From IMG/VR virus record IMGVR_UViG_2690316131_000008: a stretch of DNA of 16,062 nucleotides. The stretch is one strand, 5' to 3'. A model generated the notes under the pieces. The model searched no databases. It saw only the letters and a list, made by a program, of their open reading frames with translations, and was not told the origin of the DNA. Positions within the stretch are counted from its first letter, which is position 1. The number at the start of each line of letters is the position of its first letter. Source of the DNA: a virus (taxonomy: Duplodnaviria; Heunggongvirae; Uroviricota; Caudoviricetes). Both the position numbers and the translations under genes were made by a program. Shown here one piece after another: positions 655 through 15,528 of the stretch.

Positions 655-1272
655 TCAATTATCTTCCAGGCCGGATGCTATCAACGAAAGCCTCTCAAAA
701 AACGCTGTAGCAGCCTTGTCCAAAGTTGAATAAGTACTGTATTCTCCGTGTTCGGGACCAACCACTACCCATGGTCGTCTTTTTGGGATTCGGGACTTCT
801 CAGAAATCACTGTTCCAGATATACCAATATCAATTGTTACACCTGTTATTATTTTCTCTTCATCTCTTTCCCTGAACTCAATTGCCATAAATGCCGTTTT
901 TTTTCGTTTCCCGTTTTTAAAAAAATCAAATAAAGCAAAGCGATGCTCATTAAAATCAACACCCCATCGTCCTTCAGGATAAAGGGCATGAAAGTTGTCA
1001 TTTACGCTCTGCATCGTCTCATAAGCTTTAACTTCTAAATCTCCATAGTGCATAGATACCGCGCAGGAGTCACTGGGTAACTGTATTTTCCCAAGATTGA
1101 AAACCTTTACTGCTCCAGAACTATGGCATCTTGCCCGCAATTTATCCCCATTTATACTAATCGGAGAAATATTCCTTAATGTTCCGGGCTGGCTCCCTCC
1201 TAAGTAAACGACTGTTAAAGATTGCTTATTTTCAATTGCATCAACTAATACATGCTCTACATTTTTATCCAT
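655..1272 (-). CDS. Hypothetical protein, AT-rich cargo (moron) gene immediately downstream of Q
   Basis: ORF track 655-1299; start refined to the ATG for MDKNVEHV (1272), preceded by GGGAGG at ~6 nt. Visibly AT-rich relative to neighbours. No recognisable domain by eye. Confidence 0.6.
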   Translation of the reverse strand: MDKNVEHVLVDAIENKQSLTVVYLGGSQPGTLRNISPISINGDKLRARCHSSGAVKVFNLGKIQLPSDSCAVSMHYGDLEVKAYETMQSVNDNFHALYPEGRWGVDFNEHRFALFDFFKNGKRKKTAFMAIEFRERDEEKIITGVTIDIGISGTVISEKSRIPKRRPWVVVGPEHGEYSTYSTLDKAATAFFERLSLIASGLEDN

Positions 1273-1299
1273 AATAACCTCCCAATGAACAGGTATCAT

Positions 1300-5080: not shown

Positions 5081-5571
5081 TAAGCCCCCACGTAATTCCC
5101 TGACAGATACCACTCTTCACCCGATGCAGCGCGCTTGCTGCTTTTCCGTAAGCACCGCTCACGATGCGCCAGAAAATTGTTTCGTTCTGGCTGGGAGTGG
5201 CTTTCACGGAATGCCGCCATCCACACCGTTGCAGCACGACGGTATAAGCCCCTGGACTCCAGTTCTTCCGCCTGGCGGGTCAACAAAATCACCCGGGGAT
5301 CGTTAGTGCCGACATAGAAATTGCGCACAGGTCTGGTTTCACGAACTGGTTGTGGTTCCGGCTCCTGCGCTCTCTCAGTCAGGCGTGGGAAATGTCTGCG
5401 TGTATCTCCTTCACAACGGTGAGCCACACGCCCACTCTGACGTAACTTGCTTGCTGACTGCAGAACGCGCTGCCGTGAGTAACCAGCAAAAGCATCCGCA
5501 ATGTCTCCGGAAGTACACCCCGGATGGGCTTCAATGAATTTCTGAACTTCATTCAAAAGACTCATGATCAC
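5080..5571 (-). CDS. PerC-like putative transcriptional regulator (prophage YfdN-like)
   Basis: Segment LTRQAEELESRGLYRRAATVWMAAF resembles the PerC-family core as I recall it; Arg-rich N-terminal half. GTG/ATG start overlaps the stop of the upstream replication gene. Confidence 0.45.
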   Translation of the reverse strand: MIMSLLNEVQKFIEAHPGCTSGDIADAFAGYSRQRVLQSASKLRQSGRVAHRCEGDTRRHFPRLTERAQEPEPQPVRETRPVRNFYVGTNDPRVILLTRQAEELESRGLYRRAATVWMAAFRESHSQPERNNFLAHRERCLRKSSKRAASGEEWYLSGNYVGA

Positions 5572-6560
5572 CCCCTGAATCCTGCCGGGATCTGGCTGTA
5601 GTCCACGTTGTCGTAACTGGATTTGAAGTACGGGTCTTCGCGTTTTTCGGTGTACGTGCTGACGGACGGCGATAAGCGCAGGGAAAGCTCATCCCATTTT
5701 TCCCGCAGCTTCGACGGGCTGAGCACGTTACGGCACCAGAACGGATCGCGGCTGACGCGGCAGTACATCTCGCAGATTTGTTTGTGAGTACGCCCATCCT
5801 GTACACACATCAGGCGAATTTCGTTTGCCCAGGCTGTCCAGTTCGGTTCTTTAGGACGTACCACTTCGCCGTCACATTCGGCGGCCTGCTCGTACAGAGC
5901 GATGATTTTTTTCCAGAGCCACTGTGCGCAGGTCAAATCATCCTGCGTTCCCCACTGGCGCTTTTTAGGGCTGAATACAACCGCATCAGGATGGCGAGTT
6001 AAAAAATCCTGTTCAGCCATCTGCGTGTCCGGTTGCGAAGCGTCCGGACGAGAAGAGGTTTTATTCTCTGTAGTAATCTCTGTTGTATTCTCTGTAAGAT
6101 CATTGGGCCATTTTGACCCGATGACAGCGTGTCGTTTTGAACCAATGGATCGTGTCATTTTGCGCCCATCCATCAGGTCACTTTGACCCGATGGAGAAGT
6201 GCATTTTGACCTAATGGATTCGTTCACTTTGACCTCTTCTAAAAGCTCACTTTCATAGTTGATCGTGTAGAAGTTGGTCATGTCACGCTTCGATTTATTG
6301 AGTTGCTCGCGACGCAAAACCCCAAGTGATTTCAGGCTTGCAAATGTGCGTTTCAGAGTGGACTCTGACCAGAACGGAAACTGCTCCAGCCACTGTTCTG
6401 TCGTGTTATAAACCCAGCGAATTCCGCCATGCTCAGTGCCGGAATTCGTTTCATTCAGCCAGTAATGAAGCTGCTGCAACACAATTGCCTCATTCAGACC
6501 AATACGGCATGCAAGATCACGATTTATCACAATGGGCTGGGATGTCATTAACAGGCTCAT
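5568..6560 (-). CDS. Phage replication initiation protein (lambda O analogue) with internal origin iterons
   Basis: 330-aa ORF with a helix-turn-helix-like N-terminus and a Cys/Trp-rich C-terminal domain. The central linker region is encoded by the iteron array at 6109-6240, as in lambda O/ori. AGAGGT RBS precedes the ATG at 6560. Confidence 0.65.
   Translation of the reverse strand: MSLLMTSQPIVINRDLACRIGLNEAIVLQQLHYWLNETNSGTEHGGIRWVYNTTEQWLEQFPFWSESTLKRTFASLKSLGVLRREQLNKSKRDMTNFYTINYESELLEEVKVNESIRSKCTSPSGQSDLMDGRKMTRSIGSKRHAVIGSKWPNDLTENTTEITTENKTSSRPDASQPDTQMAEQDFLTRHPDAVVFSPKKRQWGTQDDLTCAQWLWKKIIALYEQAAECDGEVVRPKEPNWTAWANEIRLMCVQDGRTHKQICEMYCRVSRDPFWCRNVLSPSKLREKWDELSLRLSPSVSTYTEKREDPYFKSSYDNVDYSQIPAGFRG
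6109..6240. repeat. Iteron array (putative origin of replication): six ~23-bp direct repeats
   Basis: Direct repeats starting at 6109, 6133, 6156, 6179, 6202 and 6225 (cattttgacccgatg / cgttttgaaccaatgg / cattttgcgcccatcc / cactttgacccgatgg / cattttgacctaatgg / cactttgacctc), period 23-24 bp. Flanked at 6061-6100 by three copies of TCTCTGT at 12-bp spacing. Confidence 0.7.
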
Positions 6561-6904: not shown

Positions 6905-7546
6905 TCATGCGTTAGTTTCTCCACAACCAGAAGCAATCGACGCCACGACGCCCGGAGCTGCACACTCGCGGGCGTTACTCTTTTCCGGCGCACAAAAAAC
7001 ACGAAATAACAGTGTTAAATGCTCCTGCCACTTCGCCATTACTTGGTAGCTGTTCTCTTCGATTTGCTCACGCTCAGCTTGGTCAATAACTCCATCAGCA
7101 GTTGCCTTGCGTAAGTACTGGGAATGCTTGCCAATCCATTCTATTGACTCCATCAGCCGCTGATTAATGTCACCATTGTCAATGTCATCAATGACCACCA
7201 GCGGCACAAACACCCCATTACTACGACGGGCTATTGCATCCGTTACATGCCTGGTACCACTGGCATCCTGTAAAACCATGGCCCACTCAAGTGGAAAAAT
7301 TTGATCCCCACCGCTACGCAGTCTGTTATGCAATTGATCTTTTGCTGGGGTGATATCATCAGATTTATACAAACCAAGAATTTCTGCTGCTTCCTCATAG
7401 CCATGAGGTAAATCAGCAATCGTTCTTCGTATTGCTGCCACCAGCCATGCTGGTTGCTTATCAACTTTCCATTCAGGTTCTTTACCCACGTTTAAGCCCT
7501 CATATCTGTGGTTTCTGTAAATCGATTTATCCATTAGATTTTTCAT
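6905..7546 (-). CDS. YdaT/CII-like putative regulatory protein
   Basis: Sits directly downstream of the Cro/YdaS-like gene, where lambdoid and Rac-type prophages carry cII or ydaT. Start set at the ATG at 7546 (MKNLMDK...), since the track ORF (to 7603) would overlap cro by 77 nt. Functional assignment is positional. Confidence 0.45.
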
Positions 7547-7727
7547 AAAGCTCAGGTTTAAATGGCAACCGTCCGCAAGTTCTATATGCAGCCTCTGCTG
7601 CACGTCCTTTTGGAATTAACTGGCCAGGACGGTTTCGCCACTGATAAACGGCTTCAGTTGTTATGCCGAAAAAAGCAGCAACTTTCTCAATGCTGCCGAA
7701 GTAGCTTTCGATATCGTCAGTCGTCAT
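7527..7727 (-). CDS. Cro/YdaS-like HTH transcriptional regulator
   Basis: 66-aa protein; [46 protein letters not shown] fits the Cro/YdaS-type HTH pattern. Divergent from the CI-like repressor across a 97-bp operator region. Confidence 0.7.
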   Translation of the reverse strand: MTTDDIESYFGSIEKVAAFFGITTEAVYQWRNRPGQLIPKGRAAEAAYRTCGRLPFKPELYEKSNG

Positions 7728-7738
7728 ATGCCCTCCAA

Positions 7739-7803
7739 ACTAAGTTTTATTAGATGTTAATTATCAATCTATCTTAGGTCAATAAAAACTAAGATTACTT
7801 AGT
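7739..7803. promoter_or_regulatory. Divergent promoter/operator region (OR-like) with two 16-bp operator-like sites
   Basis: ACTAAGTTTTATTAGA (7739-7754) and ACTAAGATTACTTAGT (7788-7803) share the pattern ACTAAG-N4-nTTAGn with inverted half-sites, in the 97-bp gap between cro and cI. Confidence 0.5.
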
Positions 7804-7824: not shown

Positions 7825-8451
7825 ATGGAAACGGTTGGTCAGCGTATAAAAGCTCTGAGAAGAGTTACCAGAACGTCCCAGAAAGAATTGGGTAAATTTT
7901 GTGGAGTAAGTGACGTTGCTGTGGGGTACTGGGAGAAAGACATCAATGTCCCTGGTGGGGAAGCACTTTCAAAATTAGCGAAGTTCTTCAATACGTCAAT
8001 AGATTACATTCTTTATGGTGCGGAGTTTGAAGGCAAACTCGTCACAAACATGCGCAGAGTTCCTGTAATCTCGTGGGTTCAGGCTGGGCAGTTTACTGAG
8101 TGCAGGACAGCAGAAGTGTTTAGTGAAGTAGACAAGTGGGTAGATACATCATTAAAGATTGGTGATAACTCATTTGCATTGGAGGTTAAAGGCGACTCCA
8201 TGACTAACCCTAACGGCCTCCCAACAATACCAGAAGGCGCAACAGTGATTGTAGATCCTGATGCAGAACCCCGGCATGGAAAAATAGTCATCGCTAGACT
8301 TGATGGAACAAACGAAGCCACAGTAAAAAAATTAGTTATCGATGGCCCTCAAAAGTTTTTAGTGCCATTAAATCCCCGGTACCCCAACATCCCGATCAAT
8401 GGTAATTGCCTCATCATTGGTGTAGTCAAAGGAGTTCAATACGAACTCTAG
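7825..8451 (+). CDS. CI-like phage repressor (N-terminal HTH, C-terminal S24 LexA-like peptidase)
   Basis: N-terminus QRIKALRRVTRTSQKELGKFCGVSDVAVGYWE is an XRE-type HTH. C-terminus carries GDSM (Ser nucleophile) and VKKL (Lys general base about 40 residues later), as in LexA/lambda CI. Confidence 0.85.
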   Translation: METVGQRIKALRRVTRTSQKELGKFCGVSDVAVGYWEKDINVPGGEALSKLAKFFNTSIDYILYGAEFEGKLVTNMRRVPVISWVQAGQFTECRTAEVFSEVDKWVDTSLKIGDNSFALEVKGDSMTNPNGLPTIPEGATVIVDPDAEPRHGKIVIARLDGTNEATVKKLVIDGPQKFLVPLNPRYPNIPINGNCLIIGVVKGVQYEL

Positions 8452-8470
8452 CCCCCCTTTTCTCTAACCA

Positions 8471-8508
8471 AAACACCGAACTAAGAAAAGTTTGGTGTTT
8501 TCTCTTGC
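8471..8508 (+). terminator. Putative terminator downstream of cI
   Basis: 11-bp stem (8471-8481 / 8490-8500, one G-U pair), 8-nt loop, followed by tctcttg. The U-tract is weak. Confidence 0.35.
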
Positions 8509-8540
8509 CATCAAAACTAAGTTAAGTTAGATTTTATATC
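8505..8540 (+). promoter_or_regulatory. Putative early-left promoter (pL-like) with operator-like site
   Basis: TTGCCA (8505-8510), 17-bp spacer, TAGATT (8528-8533). Overlaps a third copy of the operator motif, ACTAAGTTAAGTTAGA (8516-8531). Confidence 0.3.
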
Positions 8541-8628
8541 AAAGATAACGAACAGGCAGGACGCCCACGAAGTAGCCGACGGTGGCGTATGAATGACCGG
8601 ATGATTCGCAAATGGCAGGAGAGTGAAT

Positions 8629-9021
8629 ATGGATGGCAGTATCGACAACCAACGAGATGCCTGGCTTGTGGTGATTGAAGCAGCAAAAACTGCATTAAGC
8701 CAAGTTGAAAGCAGTAACTACAGAACAGTTAAACAAATGGCTTTGGGCTCTATTATCTATGCCTTTGAAAAGCTGGGCTTTGATTTTGAAGCAACGAGTA
8801 TTCTGTCAGAACAACATGAAAAAATGAATAGAGAAGACGCCGCAGCCTATATCGGCGTAGAAGCGCAAACCTTAGCTAATTGGGCTAGCACAGGAAAAGT
8901 TCGAATACCTTTTTTAAAAATCGGTAGAAAGGTTATTTACCTAAAAAGTGATCTTGAGCCTATCTTGCCTCATCGAAGGCAAATACCACCAAGTAGCTCA
9001 CGTACCTACCACCTCGCCTGA
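8629..9021 (+). CDS. HTH (excisionase/AlpA-type, HTH_17-like) DNA-binding protein
   Basis: C-terminal REDAAAYIGVEAQTLANWASTGKVRIPFLKIGRKVIYLKSDLE fits the excisionase/AlpA-type HTH pattern. ATG at 8629 with AGGAG 7 nt upstream (the track start at 8623 is a GTG). First gene after cI on the plus strand. Confidence 0.5.
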   Translation: MDGSIDNQRDAWLVVIEAAKTALSQVESSNYRTVKQMALGSIIYAFEKLGFDFEATSILSEQHEKMNREDAAAYIGVEAQTLANWASTGKVRIPFLKIGRKVIYLKSDLEPILPHRRQIPPSSSRTYHLA

Positions 9022-9227
9022 TGTGGCTAAAAGCAGGCACATAACAGCTAAGTATTTTCAACCAGAGAGAATCCTTAGCGTTGTGGTGAATGCGCAGGCT
9101 GATGCGCGAAAGACATTGCAGCTATTGCGGAAAAGAGCTGTTCGGCGGGGCAATTAAACGCCCGTGAGAGTCTGAAATAACCGCAAGCCGGAGATCAGCA
9201 CCGGTCACCACAACAGCCACTGCTTTG

Positions 9228-9275
9228 GCGGTACCAGTTTGTACACTTGCTTCCGGCTGGTACCGCTCTTTTTAC
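9228..9275 (+). terminator. Rho-independent terminator upstream of the rdgC-like gene
   Basis: Perfect 10-bp stem gcggtaccag / ctggtaccgc (9228-9237 / 9257-9266) with a 19-nt loop, followed by tcttttta (9267-9274). Confidence 0.5.
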
Positions 9276-9396
9276 AAAACAGAGAAGAGCATCACCGGCC
9301 GACGGGCTCATAACCCAATCCATCCGGGCGGCTGCCACCGCAGGTGTTCTTCTCTGTTTTGTGGAGAAACTAATATCTTGTGCAGAGGAAAATAGA

Positions 9397-10314
9397 ATGA
9401 AATTACCAAAATTTCGTAACGCAATTGTGTACCGAGCAACATTACCTAGTATACAGGCTATTGAAGGTCATCTTCTCGAACTCCCTTATTCTGAAATCGG
9501 GGAAACAGAATTTTCACGGTCCTCTTTTGTAGAGAATCCTGTCACTGGTGAACTGGTAACTCCGATATCTGGTGGGTACGCAATGGTAATCCGTCATGAT
9601 CAGAAAATAATTCCCCGACATGTCGTCATGAAAGAAGCTAATTCTCGAATCCAAACAATCGAAAATATGTCCGGGAATAAATTAAAGCGTGCCGAACGAC
9701 TGGCCATTATTGATAACGTACGAGTAGATCTATGCAAACAGGCATTTGTTAAGTCTACGCTGATTCTTGCATTGTACAGCACTGATGAGAAATTATTGGT
9801 AATCAACACAACCAATAAAATAATAGCCGGTATGGTATGCGCAATGCTGATTAAGGTTGTCGGTTCAGTGAAAACAGAAACAATCAACATCAGTGATATC
9901 AAGAATGGACTGACTACACGCCTGAATAACTACATCAATGGTGCAGCCAATGCATTTGAAGGATTCACTGTCGGAAATTATATTCAGCTATCACGCTACG
10001 CAGATCAAAAGGAAATTATTCGCTACTCAGCTGAGCATGAGTCAATTCAAAGCGAACTGGCCGATAGTCTTAGTAGTAGTTTCACTGCTGATAAAATGGA
10101 GTTATCCGGTTGCGGTGTGACCTTCATTCTTACCGAAAATTTCCATTTTTCGCGCATCAATACTCAATCTCAGACATTTAATGATGAAGATGATAAAGCA
10201 TTCCAGTGGCGTCATCAGACTGGCGCTGACCTTTTCCAATTCAGCAAGGTAGTTAATTTGATGTGTGACCTTCTTTCTTACAAAGAAGATAAAAGCCAAA
10301 ATCCAACAACTTAA
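9397..10314 (+). CDS. RdgC-like recombination-associated protein
   Basis: 305 aa from the ATG at 9397 (GAGGA 7 nt upstream). N-terminus MKLPKFRNAIVYR parallels E. coli RdgC (MLWFKNLMVYR), and length matches (~303 aa). AT-rich. Family call from memory. Confidence 0.5.
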   Translation: MKLPKFRNAIVYRATLPSIQAIEGHLLELPYSEIGETEFSRSSFVENPVTGELVTPISGGYAMVIRHDQKIIPRHVVMKEANSRIQTIENMSGNKLKRAERLAIIDNVRVDLCKQAFVKSTLILALYSTDEKLLVINTTNKIIAGMVCAMLIKVVGSVKTETINISDIKNGLTTRLNNYINGAANAFEGFTVGNYIQLSRYADQKEIIRYSAEHESIQSELADSLSSSFTADKMELSGCGVTFILTENFHFSRINTQSQTFNDEDDKAFQWRHQTGADLFQFSKVVNLMCDLLSYKEDKSQNPTT

Positions 10315-13961: not shown

Positions 13962-13997
13962 TTTTCCCGGGTGCAGCCGGTTTTGATGGAGAAAATT

Positions 13998-14279
13998 ATG
14001 AACACCTTGTTTTTACTGATGGCTGAATTCAATACCCCAAACATTGAACTCTCAGCAGTTAGCCAAAAGTACTTTGGTATGAGTCCAGCCACGGCAGAAG
14101 CAAAAGCAAACGCTTGTAAGTTGCCCGTTCCAACATATCGCATCGGCACATCACAAAAAGCAAAACGTTGCATCAATATTCAGGATCTTGCGGAATACAT
14201 AGACAAAAGGCGAGAAGAAGGACGTATCGAGTGGGAACAGGTCAGAACAGTCAAACAGAAGGGCAAAGAAAATCACTAA
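13998..14279 (+). CDS. PrtN-family excisionase-like protein (putative Xis)
   Basis: MNTLFLLMAEFNTPNIELSAVSQKYFGMSPATAEAKANACKLPVPTYRIG...IQDLAEYID resembles PrtN/Xis-type small DNA-binding proteins. ATG at 13998 with GGAG upstream. Last gene of the plus-strand operon. Confidence 0.6.
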   Translation: MNTLFLLMAEFNTPNIELSAVSQKYFGMSPATAEAKANACKLPVPTYRIGTSQKAKRCINIQDLAEYIDKRREEGRIEWEQVRTVKQKGKENH

Positions 14280-14539: not shown

Positions 14540-14959
14540 TTACTCATCATCAATAGATGATACGCAATATTTATTTTTAAATTTAAGGTTCTTTGGCGTA
14601 ACTTCATCAGAGATATCAAAACCGTCCAGAATTCTATTGAATGTAGCTTCTGGCATATCATCATGAACAGAAATCTCACCCGATCGCTGCTTTCTAACCA
14701 TGTTATCCACTCGCCAAATTATAGCTTCAGCGTAAACAACATAACTTGGATGCTTGATAAAGCGATGATCACCAGAATTCAAGACGCAAGACGGATCGTG
14801 GGGGACACCATCCTTGATACTAGAAATATTAACAACTAAAACACAATAACAATCGTTAACGGGGTAATAAACAGGATCATTACAAATCACATGAAGATGA
14901 TTGCATGGTCCAGTTGGGGCAAGCACAGTTCCTTTCCTGTATGGCTGATAATCCGTCAT
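14540..14959 (-). CDS. Hypothetical protein; candidate toxin/effector partner of the Panacea-domain protein
   Basis: 139 aa, AT-rich, Cys/His-rich (CNHLHVICNDP...CYCVL...HDPSCVL). Start codon overlaps the stop of the upstream Panacea gene (ATGA at 14956-14959). No recognisable domain by eye. Confidence 0.55.
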   Translation of the reverse strand: MTDYQPYRKGTVLAPTGPCNHLHVICNDPVYYPVNDCYCVLVVNISSIKDGVPHDPSCVLNSGDHRFIKHPSYVVYAEAIIWRVDNMVRKQRSGEISVHDDMPEATFNRILDGFDISDEVTPKNLKFKNKYCVSSIDDE

Positions 14960-15528
14960 GATAATTGCAAAGAAAATTCCTTAAGTTTCTGAGATTCTTC
15001 CATTTTGCCAATTATGCGATTAGCCTCATCCTCGCTTTTACCCTCACTGATCAGCATTTCTTTCAGGTCTATAGGCTTACGAGAATTGCCAGGATCGTGC
15101 CACTCTGGACAAACGCTTTCTAAATGCGTCATATTTGCGAGATCAAATCGGTTCATATGCCCATACCGAGAATAGATTTCATCTAAAATCCGGATATCTG
15201 CACGACTCAATTCATCAAAGACCTCGTCTGCATCCATTTCCCTCGGATCTGAACGCAACGATACATTATGCCCGTTCGTCTCTATCAAGTTGTACCAGTA
15301 GTCACCAATGCCTTCAGCCTTACCGCGAATCAAGTTCAGCGTATTCGACATGACTGGTCCAAATTTCATAGAGTAAAGGCTATCTTCGCCGATCATCCTG
15401 CCATGCTTCAAAATCGACTGGCGGTTAGACAGATAGAGCAGCTTCATCAATTTCAGATATGCCATGCGCCCACCTCTCTTAAGAAGTAGGTATGCAGCCA
15501 TTTGAGCTACTTTTTCTTCGCAAAACAT
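14956..15528 (-). CDS. Panacea-domain (DUF4065) protein, PanA/SocA-like putative antitoxin
   Basis: MAYLKLMKLLYLSNRQSILKHGRMIGEDSLYSMKFGPV... parallels the Panacea core (MKLQKLLYFA ... W.YGPV) of SocA/PanA antitoxins. AT-rich; GAGG ~8 nt upstream of the ATG at 15528. Confidence 0.65.
   Translation of the reverse strand: MFCEEKVAQMAAYLLLKRGGRMAYLKLMKLLYLSNRQSILKHGRMIGEDSLYSMKFGPVMSNTLNLIRGKAEGIGDYWYNLIETNGHNVSLRSDPREMDADEVFDELSRADIRILDEIYSRYGHMNRFDLANMTHLESVCPEWHDPGNSRKPIDLKEMLISEGKSEDEANRIIGKMEESQKLKEFSLQLS

Follow-up and report, generated by a model that had tools for sequence, protein, structure and literature searches.

Lambda N, P22 gp24 and phage 21 N are encoded by the first gene from the early-left promoter, PL, upstream of a terminator-like hairpin. 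The same position in HK022, a lambdoid phage without N, is taken by Nun, which has a role other than antitermination of its own phage, and in P2 and 186 the genes for Cox and Apl are the first genes of the early lytic operon. SfII, SfV and SfIV are stated to lack homologues of N, cII and cIII (PMC3851460). The IMG/VR virus record IMGVR_UViG_2690316131_000008, a stretch of 16,062 nucleotides (nt) referred to here as the window, covers the early region of a lambdoid prophage that belongs to the SfV / CPS-53 (KplE1) / mEp460 type. Its gene at 8629-9021 (coordinates are those of the window, and features are on the plus strand unless noted otherwise) encodes a small protein with a helix-turn-helix (HTH) of the HTH_17 type and follows the cI-type repressor gene. 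The best explanation, with a probability of about 0.5, is that the gene is immediate-early and accessory, a moron-like addition to an SfV/CPS-53-like lambdoid prophage, and that its product is a DNA-binding regulator. The protein is probably neither the functional equivalent of lambda N nor the cognate excisionase of this prophage.

The likeness to lambda N, P22 gp24 and phage 21 N is one of genomic position only. Unlike N, the protein has no Arg-rich motif and its gene no nut-like boxA/boxB, a folded DNA-binding domain stands where N has a disordered RNA-binding peptide, and relatives do without the gene. HK022 Nun is an Arg-rich RNA-binding protein with no sequence or fold relation to the HTH_17 protein, and the HK022 genome lacks the RNA module that adjoins the HTH_17 gene (see below). 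The best structural match is RdfS of ICEMlSym R7A (PDB 8dgl; E value 3.4e-3, target-normalised template-modelling (TM) score 0.72, 28% identity over 65 columns), and the protein shares the MerR-like strand-helix-helix-strand-strand-helix fold of RdfS, mycobacteriophage Pukovnik Xis (PDB 4j2n) and the HTH_17 family. RdfS and Pukovnik Xis are single-domain proteins of 55-70 amino acids (aa) encoded beside the integrase, whereas the HTH_17 protein has an extra orphan N-terminal domain of 62 residues and is encoded about 5 kb from a separate excisionase gene. P2 Cox (PDB 4lhf) is alike at the level of the fold (probability 0.97, E 0.11), and it is also a small winged helix. However, the genes for Cox and Apl take the cro position, at the switch itself, and each encodes its phage's only excisionase, while the window already has a Cro (7527-7727, minus strand) and a PrtN-type excisionase; the order of the DNA-binding and oligomerisation parts is also reversed. 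BldC and RacA, small multimeric DNA binders without an effector domain, are cellular developmental regulators that match in fold (target-normalised TM score 0.54-0.75, 18-24% identity), with no homology beyond the fold and with a different mode of oligomerisation. Pseudomonas aeruginosa AlpA and phage Q have a like domain logic, an N-terminal contact part and a C-terminal HTH, and are induced by DNA damage (PMC9371919, PMC7969949), but AlpA has an eight-helix Q-like fold, and neither the sequence nor the fold search connects it to the HTH_17 protein.

The cI-type repressor gene (7825-8451; HTH_3 and Peptidase_S24 domains in Pfam) is followed by an intrinsic terminator at 8470-8510, which separates the lysogenic cI transcript from the HTH_17 gene. 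It consists of a hairpin of 13 base pairs (bp) at 8470-8501 (inverted repeat I6; -15.6 kcal/mol, z score -4.35, 0/200 shuffles as stable) and the sequence UUUUCUCUU. A promoter scan finds a PL-like sigma-70 promoter at 8505-8536, with TTGCCA (8505-8510) and TAGATT (8528-8533) 17 nt apart, and an operator-like site, ACTAAGTTAAGTTAGAT (8516-8532), lies within it. The 31 nt at 8506-8536 belong to repeat family D1, with 81% identity to a copy between cI and cro (7729-7759), and because the promoter falls inside this repeat copy it looks like PL with a cI-type operator. The Citrobacter homologue is preceded by TTGACA-17-TAAATT, flanked by that phage's own different operator repeats. This arrangement of promoter and operator in the window and in Citrobacter suggests that the gene is, as read from the sequence, immediate-early, repressor-controlled and in the place of lambda N. 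The earlier note's placement of the gene, in the position where lambda carries N, thus holds, in that it is the first gene of the early-left PL operon. It is also the first plus-strand gene after cI, as the note had it, with no other plus-strand ORF (open reading frame) of at least 40 aa between the cI stop (8451) and 8623. The putative PL transcript has a conserved 5' leader (8547-8608) that is common to SfV and vB_EcoS-569R4, in which a different first gene follows; the identity by blastn is 85-88% to these two phages (L003, L002) and 94% to a heteroimmune Citrobacter prophage. Neither a boxA-like CGCTCTT(T)A nor a nut-like boxA/boxB is found in the leader region 8541-8628, and the leader folds no better than shuffles (z -0.11).

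In the window the ORF has its ATG at 8629 and its TGA at 9021 and encodes 130 aa, or 132 aa from an alternative GTG at 8623; a good Shine-Dalgarno sequence, AGGAG (8617-8621), lies 7 nt upstream of the ATG. The earlier figure of 130 aa is correct for this ORF but not for the normal product, which has 122 aa. When the DNA is aligned with an E. coli contig (L004) and phage mEp460_4F5, one T is missing from the window allele, a 1-nt deletion that falls between 8957 and 8958 (CTTGA/GCC, against CTTGATGCC in the common allele). The frameshift alters codon 110 and puts residues 111-130 out of frame; the non-ancestral frame runs to 9018, past the ancestral stop, TAG, at 8994-8996. The homologues have 120-125 aa, and the normal 122-aa product ends in ...SDLDAYLASSKANTTK. 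All eight complete E. coli genomes with the gene align over 394 bases to the 393-base query, consistent with an extra base in the common allele. Five contigs have the frameshifted product on record, which makes a real minority allele probable. With the frameshift the HTH domain loses its last helix (residues 106-117 in the model), which is replaced by 20 unrelated residues, so the window copy is probably weakened or inactive. The window allele is therefore unsuited to experiments, and the intact gene is present in phage mEp460_4F5.

Start-codon annotations of this gene conflict between pipelines. Some complete genomes in RefSeq are annotated with the last 57 codons only (WP_032174256.1) and others with the 122-aa form; the 57-codon annotation of E. 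coli 2009C-3675 (L023 9196-9369) corresponds to 8824-8996 of the window. The long ORF remains open in relatives of only about 50% identity, and the differences between the E. coli and Ewingella-type genes at codon positions 1, 2 and 3 number 27, 18 and 32 in the N-terminal half and 25, 17 and 38 in the HTH half. The Ewingella-type homologues have Leu at the position where the short form requires Met. The 57-aa form was rejected on this coding signature and on the absence of an internal Met in the homologues. The 122-aa form is thus the right one, and the pattern of substitutions indicates that the N-terminal half is translated and under purifying selection.

The intact protein is predicted to consist of two domains. 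Residues 1-62 (8629-8814) form an orphan domain, modelled as a two-helix hairpin (residues 3-24 and 31-48) with a predicted local distance difference test score (pLDDT) of 58-75, and residues 66-110 (8824-8958) form a MerR-like, excisionase-type HTH_17 winged helix according to Pfam, AlphaFold and Foldseek. For the N-terminal 65 residues, neither Pfam nor PHROG gives any match at E values up to 10, in keeping with the description of this half as unrecognisable. Residues 69-110 score 28.5 bits (E 1.8e-6) against Pfam HTH_17 (PF12728), a marginal pass of the gathering cut-off of 27. Searches with the window protein and with a homologue, P0019, found 18 and three proteins, of which 14 and all three, respectively, have a precomputed PF12728 annotation. 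The PHROG family phrog_66, "excisionase and transcriptional regulator", also matches the protein (E 2.6e-6). The NCBIfam model TIGR01764, "excise", gives the intact 122-aa protein 22.1 bits, below its cut-off of 28.8, and does not match the window allele at E ≤0.01; one relative, P0018, narrowly passes it (29.3 bits). Phage_AlpA (PF05930), the family of E. coli AlpA and TorI, has no match at E ≤0.01. Of the earlier assignment to an excisionase/AlpA-type HTH, the C-terminal HTH_17 domain is therefore upheld by Pfam and AlphaFold and the AlpA type is not. A weak, domain-level likeness to the defence protein MAD1 scores 24.7 bits against a cut-off of 80. The 122-aa protein has five Arg, none of them clustered, and a net charge near zero as read from the sequence, which agrees with the earlier statement that it is not an Arg-rich, N-like protein.

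AlphaFold gave an unusable model with an alignment of nine sequences (pLDDT 48), and an alignment of 135 sequences rescued the HTH half. The pLDDT exceeds 90 for residues 65-117, which are modelled as strand 65-67, helices 68-75 and 79-88, strands 96-98 and 101-105, and helix 106-117, so that the element order of the C-terminal half is strand-helix-helix-strand-strand-helix. Foldseek matches in the PDB are MerR-like winged helices: RdfS, DNA-binding domains of small terminases, BldC, RacA, Pukovnik Xis, P2 Cox and MtaN, with a probability of 1.00 for RdfS, BldC and RacA and of 0.99-1.00 for Pukovnik Xis. Viral models labelled HTH, excisionase or AlpA are also listed, and every fold match is restricted to the C-terminal half. 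A sequence search of the PDB yields nothing better than Pukovnik Xis, with E 0.75. The folds of N, Q and Pseudomonas AlpA are absent from the 50 best Foldseek PDB matches and from the PDB sequence search, a negative that is not strong for Q and AlpA given the moderate confidence of the N-terminal model. The protein is very probably of the DNA-binding regulator type, and the model of the N-terminal hairpin suggests that it is probably oligomeric.

The HTH_17 protein family is very small. A word-indexed search of 5.8 billion proteins returned 18 matches to the window protein, and an exhaustive hidden Markov model (HMM) search of 1.84 billion cluster representatives added a single further full-length cluster, P0019 (E 3e-35), and a fragment, P0021. 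The remaining HMM matches, 2581 at E ≤0.001, cover the HTH half only, so that beyond the window protein this search found the N-terminal half in P0019 and the fragment P0021 only. The gene is present in 8 of 5426 complete E. coli genomes, in one of 50,697 phage records (mEp460_4F5) and in one of 185,579 species-representative genomes (Ewingella). In all four of its contexts (E. coli, Citrobacter, Ewingella and a metagenomic phage) it is the first forward gene after PL, with yfdP/yfdQ or an rdgC operon downstream. The repressors of the four contexts are at most 30% identical to one another or have only the peptidase domain in common, and two of the four have demonstrably different operators. 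The gene is thus not bound to one immunity type.

Close relatives of the window carry other things in the same slot. SfV has orf33, vB_EcoS-569R4 has a 73-aa ORF together with a gene on the reverse strand, mEp460 has only reverse genes, and in Stx2a_WGPS2 the slot is free of annotation, while all four have downstream DNA of the window type. The slot ORFs of the relatives belong to PHROGs 3195, 1744 and 5286, and phages with the window's cI likewise carry other genes in the slot. Because the slot behind PL is empty or holds unrelated ORFs in close relatives whose downstream DNA is the same, it is hypervariable, and the gene, judged by this comparison of genomes, is accessory and dispensable for this phage type. 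Two partial relatives are also found. P0017 (176 aa, E. coli) has the first ~50 residues of the HTH_17 protein fused to DUF2303 (YfdQ-like), a fusion that presumably arose by deletion. P0018 (160 aa; L010 8001-8483), encoded in a Rac-like prophage with RecE and lambda-type Xis and Int, has an HTH that is 74-76% identical and an unrelated N-terminal domain. Together, they look like domain shuffling around one DNA-binding module. A search for a common DNA-binding site found no k-mer of 8 nt or more common to the flanks of all five homologue contexts, and the only long words (9-12 nt) common to the window and the Ewingella-type loci are the core of the RNA module, so a common site in the flanks was rejected.

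These results suggest how the HTH_17 gene may work. As it lies directly behind a promoter that appears to be controlled by cI, it would be silent in the lysogen and among the first genes transcribed upon induction or infection. The N-terminal hairpin may serve as a dimerisation or partner-binding module, and the C-terminal MerR-superfamily winged helix, of the HTH_17/excisionase type, would bind DNA. The likeliest activity is sequence-specific DNA binding that tunes one or a few promoters, of the phage or of the host, during early lytic growth, with a mode of action akin to that of small architectural regulators such as BldC, Cox/Apl and RdfS. Since close relatives lack the gene, the basic early programme would not depend on the protein. 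Several points weigh against this explanation. The HTH_17 score is marginal and the N-terminal model only moderately confident; the promoter and operator are called from matches to a consensus and to a repeat; the homologue flanks yielded no DNA target; regulation is not distinguished from recombination directionality, replication, packaging interference or defence; and the terminator-like hairpin after the gene leaves room for a role in antitermination.

It is possible, if unlikely, that the protein is directed at the host or at other phages, as an early protein that shuts down a defence or metabolic promoter of the host or disturbs a competing element. Such a role differs from regulation of the kind proposed above only in where the DNA target lies. 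The hypervariable slot, with unrelated genes in relatives, would suit it, and the P0018 protein of a Rac-like prophage keeps its HTH, with GVEAQTLANWA unchanged, in the absence of a common flanking motif, which hints at a target outside the phage. The domain-level likeness to MAD1, an HTH component of a defence system, points the same way but is far under the cut-off, and the search of the homologue flanks for a target was negative. A further and rather improbable role is that of an auxiliary recombination directionality factor with a Cox/Apl-like dual activity, which would bend att DNA for excision and repress a promoter. The protein is in the fold class of the excisionases, the Foldseek matches include RdfS, Pukovnik Xis and P2 Cox, the phrog_66 and P0018 results lean the same way, and the gene holds the same first place in the early operon as P2 cox and 186 apl. 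Yet a dedicated excisionase, of one of two unrelated types, is found in every context, either adjoining the integrase or at the prophage end: PrtN-type in E. coli and Citrobacter, and lambda Exc-type with an Arm-DNA-bind_1 integrase in the other contexts. The HTH_17 gene thus co-occurs with integrases of two arm-binding types, Arm-DNA-bind_1 and Arm-DNA-bind_2, which one excisionase specificity is not expected to serve, and in the window it is ~5 kb from the PrtN-type gene at the prophage end. The window-type protein also scores under the TIGR01764 cut-off. The att sites lie outside the window. Since each prophage has its own excisionase, the protein is probably not the cognate one, and the match to a characterised excisionase that the earlier note named as grounds against its view was not found, with Pukovnik Xis as the best PDB sequence match, Foldseek likeness at the fold level only and a separate PrtN-type gene in the window.

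That the protein replaces N, as a DNA-loaded (Q-like or AlpA-like) or novel antiterminator that carries PL transcription past the hairpin at 9227-9275, is very unlikely. It is first after PL, like N, and two hairpins, one terminator-like and one long, separate it from rdgC/yfdP; phages of the SfV type reportedly have no N (PMC3851460); and Pseudomonas AlpA is an antiterminator with an N-terminal RNA polymerase (RNAP)-binding part and a C-terminal HTH (PMC9371919). However, the gene is missing from relatives that have these hairpins and this downstream operon, some of which have no ORF in the slot at all. The protein has no Arg-rich motif, the leader is unstructured and free of boxA/boxB, and no sequence or fold match to N, Q or AlpA is found, although AlpA and Q are in the PDB; neither is among the best 50 Foldseek matches. 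The family is also too rare for a core function. A specific form of this idea is a long shot: a novel type of early antiterminator or anti-attenuator in SfV-type phages without N, in which the HTH_17 domain would load on DNA near PL and the N-terminal hairpin would drive RNAP through both 9227-9275 and 9269-9367 into the recombination and early-left genes. If true, the unrelated slot ORFs, such as SfV orf33, would be non-homologous functional analogues. The earlier proposals of an antirepressor or a second immunity-region regulator, inactivating cI or acting at the immunity operators, are scarcely credible. The gene lies beside the immunity region and is linked to one cI allele within E. coli. 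On the other hand, it occurs with four repressors that are no more than 30% identical or alike in the peptidase domain only, and phages with the window's cI lack it and carry other genes. Its transcription would come from the very promoter that the repressor shuts off, and the protein has a DNA-binding fold, with no match to antirepressor families in Pfam, PHROG or PADLOC or to the KilA-N, AntA and ANT proteins seen elsewhere in these loci. Regulation by an accessory immediate-early protein thus remains the preferred explanation.

The region between the HTH_17 gene and the RdgC-like gene, which starts at 9397, is highly structured. The segment 9022-9396 folds far better than shuffles (z -4.9) and comprises three elements, an RNA module and two hairpins. 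The first hairpin (9227-9275) is terminator-like, with a 13-bp stem, a large loop and then UCUUUUU (-21.2 kcal/mol, z -3.9). It lies between the HTH_17 gene and RNA module on one side and the early-left genes on the other, and is identical in L004 and mEp460_4F5. The second, long hairpin (9269-9367) has a ~25-bp stem (-49 kcal/mol, z -5.6), is kept at 83-85% in ST64B-like Salmonella and Klebsiella phages, and shows compensatory changes, judged by eye, relative to the Citrobacter copy (L013 6745-6885).

The RNA module (9080-9214) is tRNA-shaped and would be on the same transcript as the HTH_17 gene, and is not part of the protein. It has a closing helix, P1, in which GUUGUGGUG (9080-9088) pairs with CACCACAAC (9206-9214); a conserved hairpin, P2 (9092-9107), GCGC-AGGCUGAU-GCGC; a hypervariable insert of 79 nt (9108-9186); and a second conserved hairpin, P3 (9187-9205), GCCGG-AGAUCAGCA-CCGGC. 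The P2 and P3 loops are complementary, and GCUGAU of the first loop can form a kissing interaction with AUCAGC of AGAUCAGCA. Phage P1 carries the segment 9073-9215 at 98% identity, in unannotated DNA just past two tRNA genes, and very different phages share the first 35 nt of the segment at 94-100% identity. When IMG/VR was scanned for exact matches to either of the conserved cores, at least 178 unique instances were found. All collected instances have one architecture: a P1 of free, covarying sequence, a 4-bp hairpin with the invariant loop AGGCUGAU, an insert, and a 5-bp hairpin with the loop AGAUCAGCA. The inserts are 6-166 nt long, with at least 161 distinct inserts in 122 clusters. Covariation among 83 diverse sequences is strong: pairing holds in 94% of the cells, and both sides vary at 14 of 24 pairs, while 0/500 shuffles are as good and slid controls reach 28-50%. 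Searches of the window and of 12 other loci against Rfam 15 gave no match, and the core sequences were not found in the literature searched. The module appears to belong to a large, undescribed family of phage RNAs. Of the at least 178 copies, 28 are within 500 nt of a tRNA gene, all 28 on the same strand. Lambdoid phages have the module in two recurrent positions, one after cI and the other between Q and the lysis genes.

None of ~215 IMG/VR loci with the module encodes the HTH_17 protein; a link between the two was therefore rejected, and the RNA module is independent of the HTH_17 gene. An N-like Arg-rich ORF in the module, starting at 9084/9087 ((M/V)NAQADARKTLQLLRKRAVRRGN) or extended from 9022, has no Pfam or PHROG match. 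This frame of 23 codons is shortened to 8 codons in the Citrobacter relative, and its conservation is explained by compensatory RNA pairing, so it is probably not a gene. Several known RNAs were also considered and rejected. The CA-rich CACCACAAC brought to mind an anti-small RNA (sRNA) of the AgvB type, but the motif is the 3' strand of P1, and AgvB is 51-60 nt long and located downstream of PR'. The put RNA of HK022 is not a counterpart, as HK022 has neither core within 6 mismatches apart from two chance matches in unrelated regions. The Pas sRNAs are confined to Escherichia/Shigella, are of the Hfq type and lie near structural genes. A search for an antisense target of the insert within the window gave chance-level matches only, of 9-11 nt. 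One cluster of inserts (L112, L122, L142, L222 and L228) has 86-90% identity over 29 nt to E. coli 16S rRNA 254-282 (best E 1.6e-5, one rrn operon); of the other inserts, only four gave matches, short ones of 13-17 nt (E 0.003-0.004).

The remainder of the window holds further genes of the lambdoid early region. On the minus strand are Q (1348-1734), an O-like replication protein (5568-6560), a CII-like protein (6905-7603) and Cro, as well as genes for Dam, a protein with a LexA DNA-binding domain, RusA, a KilA-N protein and a DUF968 protein. Downstream of Q, a 214-aa ORF (655-1299, minus strand) has no Pfam match and a weak match to a WYL domain in PADLOC (E 1.2e-3). On the plus strand the RdgC-like gene (9397-10314) is accompanied by genes for a YfdR-like HD phosphatase, Ead/Ea22, DUF551 and an Rv2179c-like exonuclease, and the PrtN-type excisionase gene (13971-14279; PF11112, phrog_1300) marks the prophage end. 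Just past it, a gene for a SocA/Panacea-domain protein (14956-15528, minus strand; PF13274, E 2e-19) overlaps by 4 nt a 139-aa ORF without a family match (14540-14959, minus strand). The pair looks like a PanA-type antitoxin with a putative toxin partner and is seen again in related prophages.

The protein itself carries modest stakes, as one more small DNA-binding cargo gene in a hypervariable slot behind PL. The N position of N-less SfV/CPS-53-type phages is a slot for accessory cargo and not the seat of a conserved regulator. Since it is rare, the HTH_17 gene cannot be the general answer to how transcription passes from PL to the early-left genes in this group. The obvious candidates for this passage without N are the conserved structured RNAs that lie ahead of rdgC/yfdP, after the HTH_17 gene, and the RNA module among them is of more interest than the protein and merits its own follow-up.

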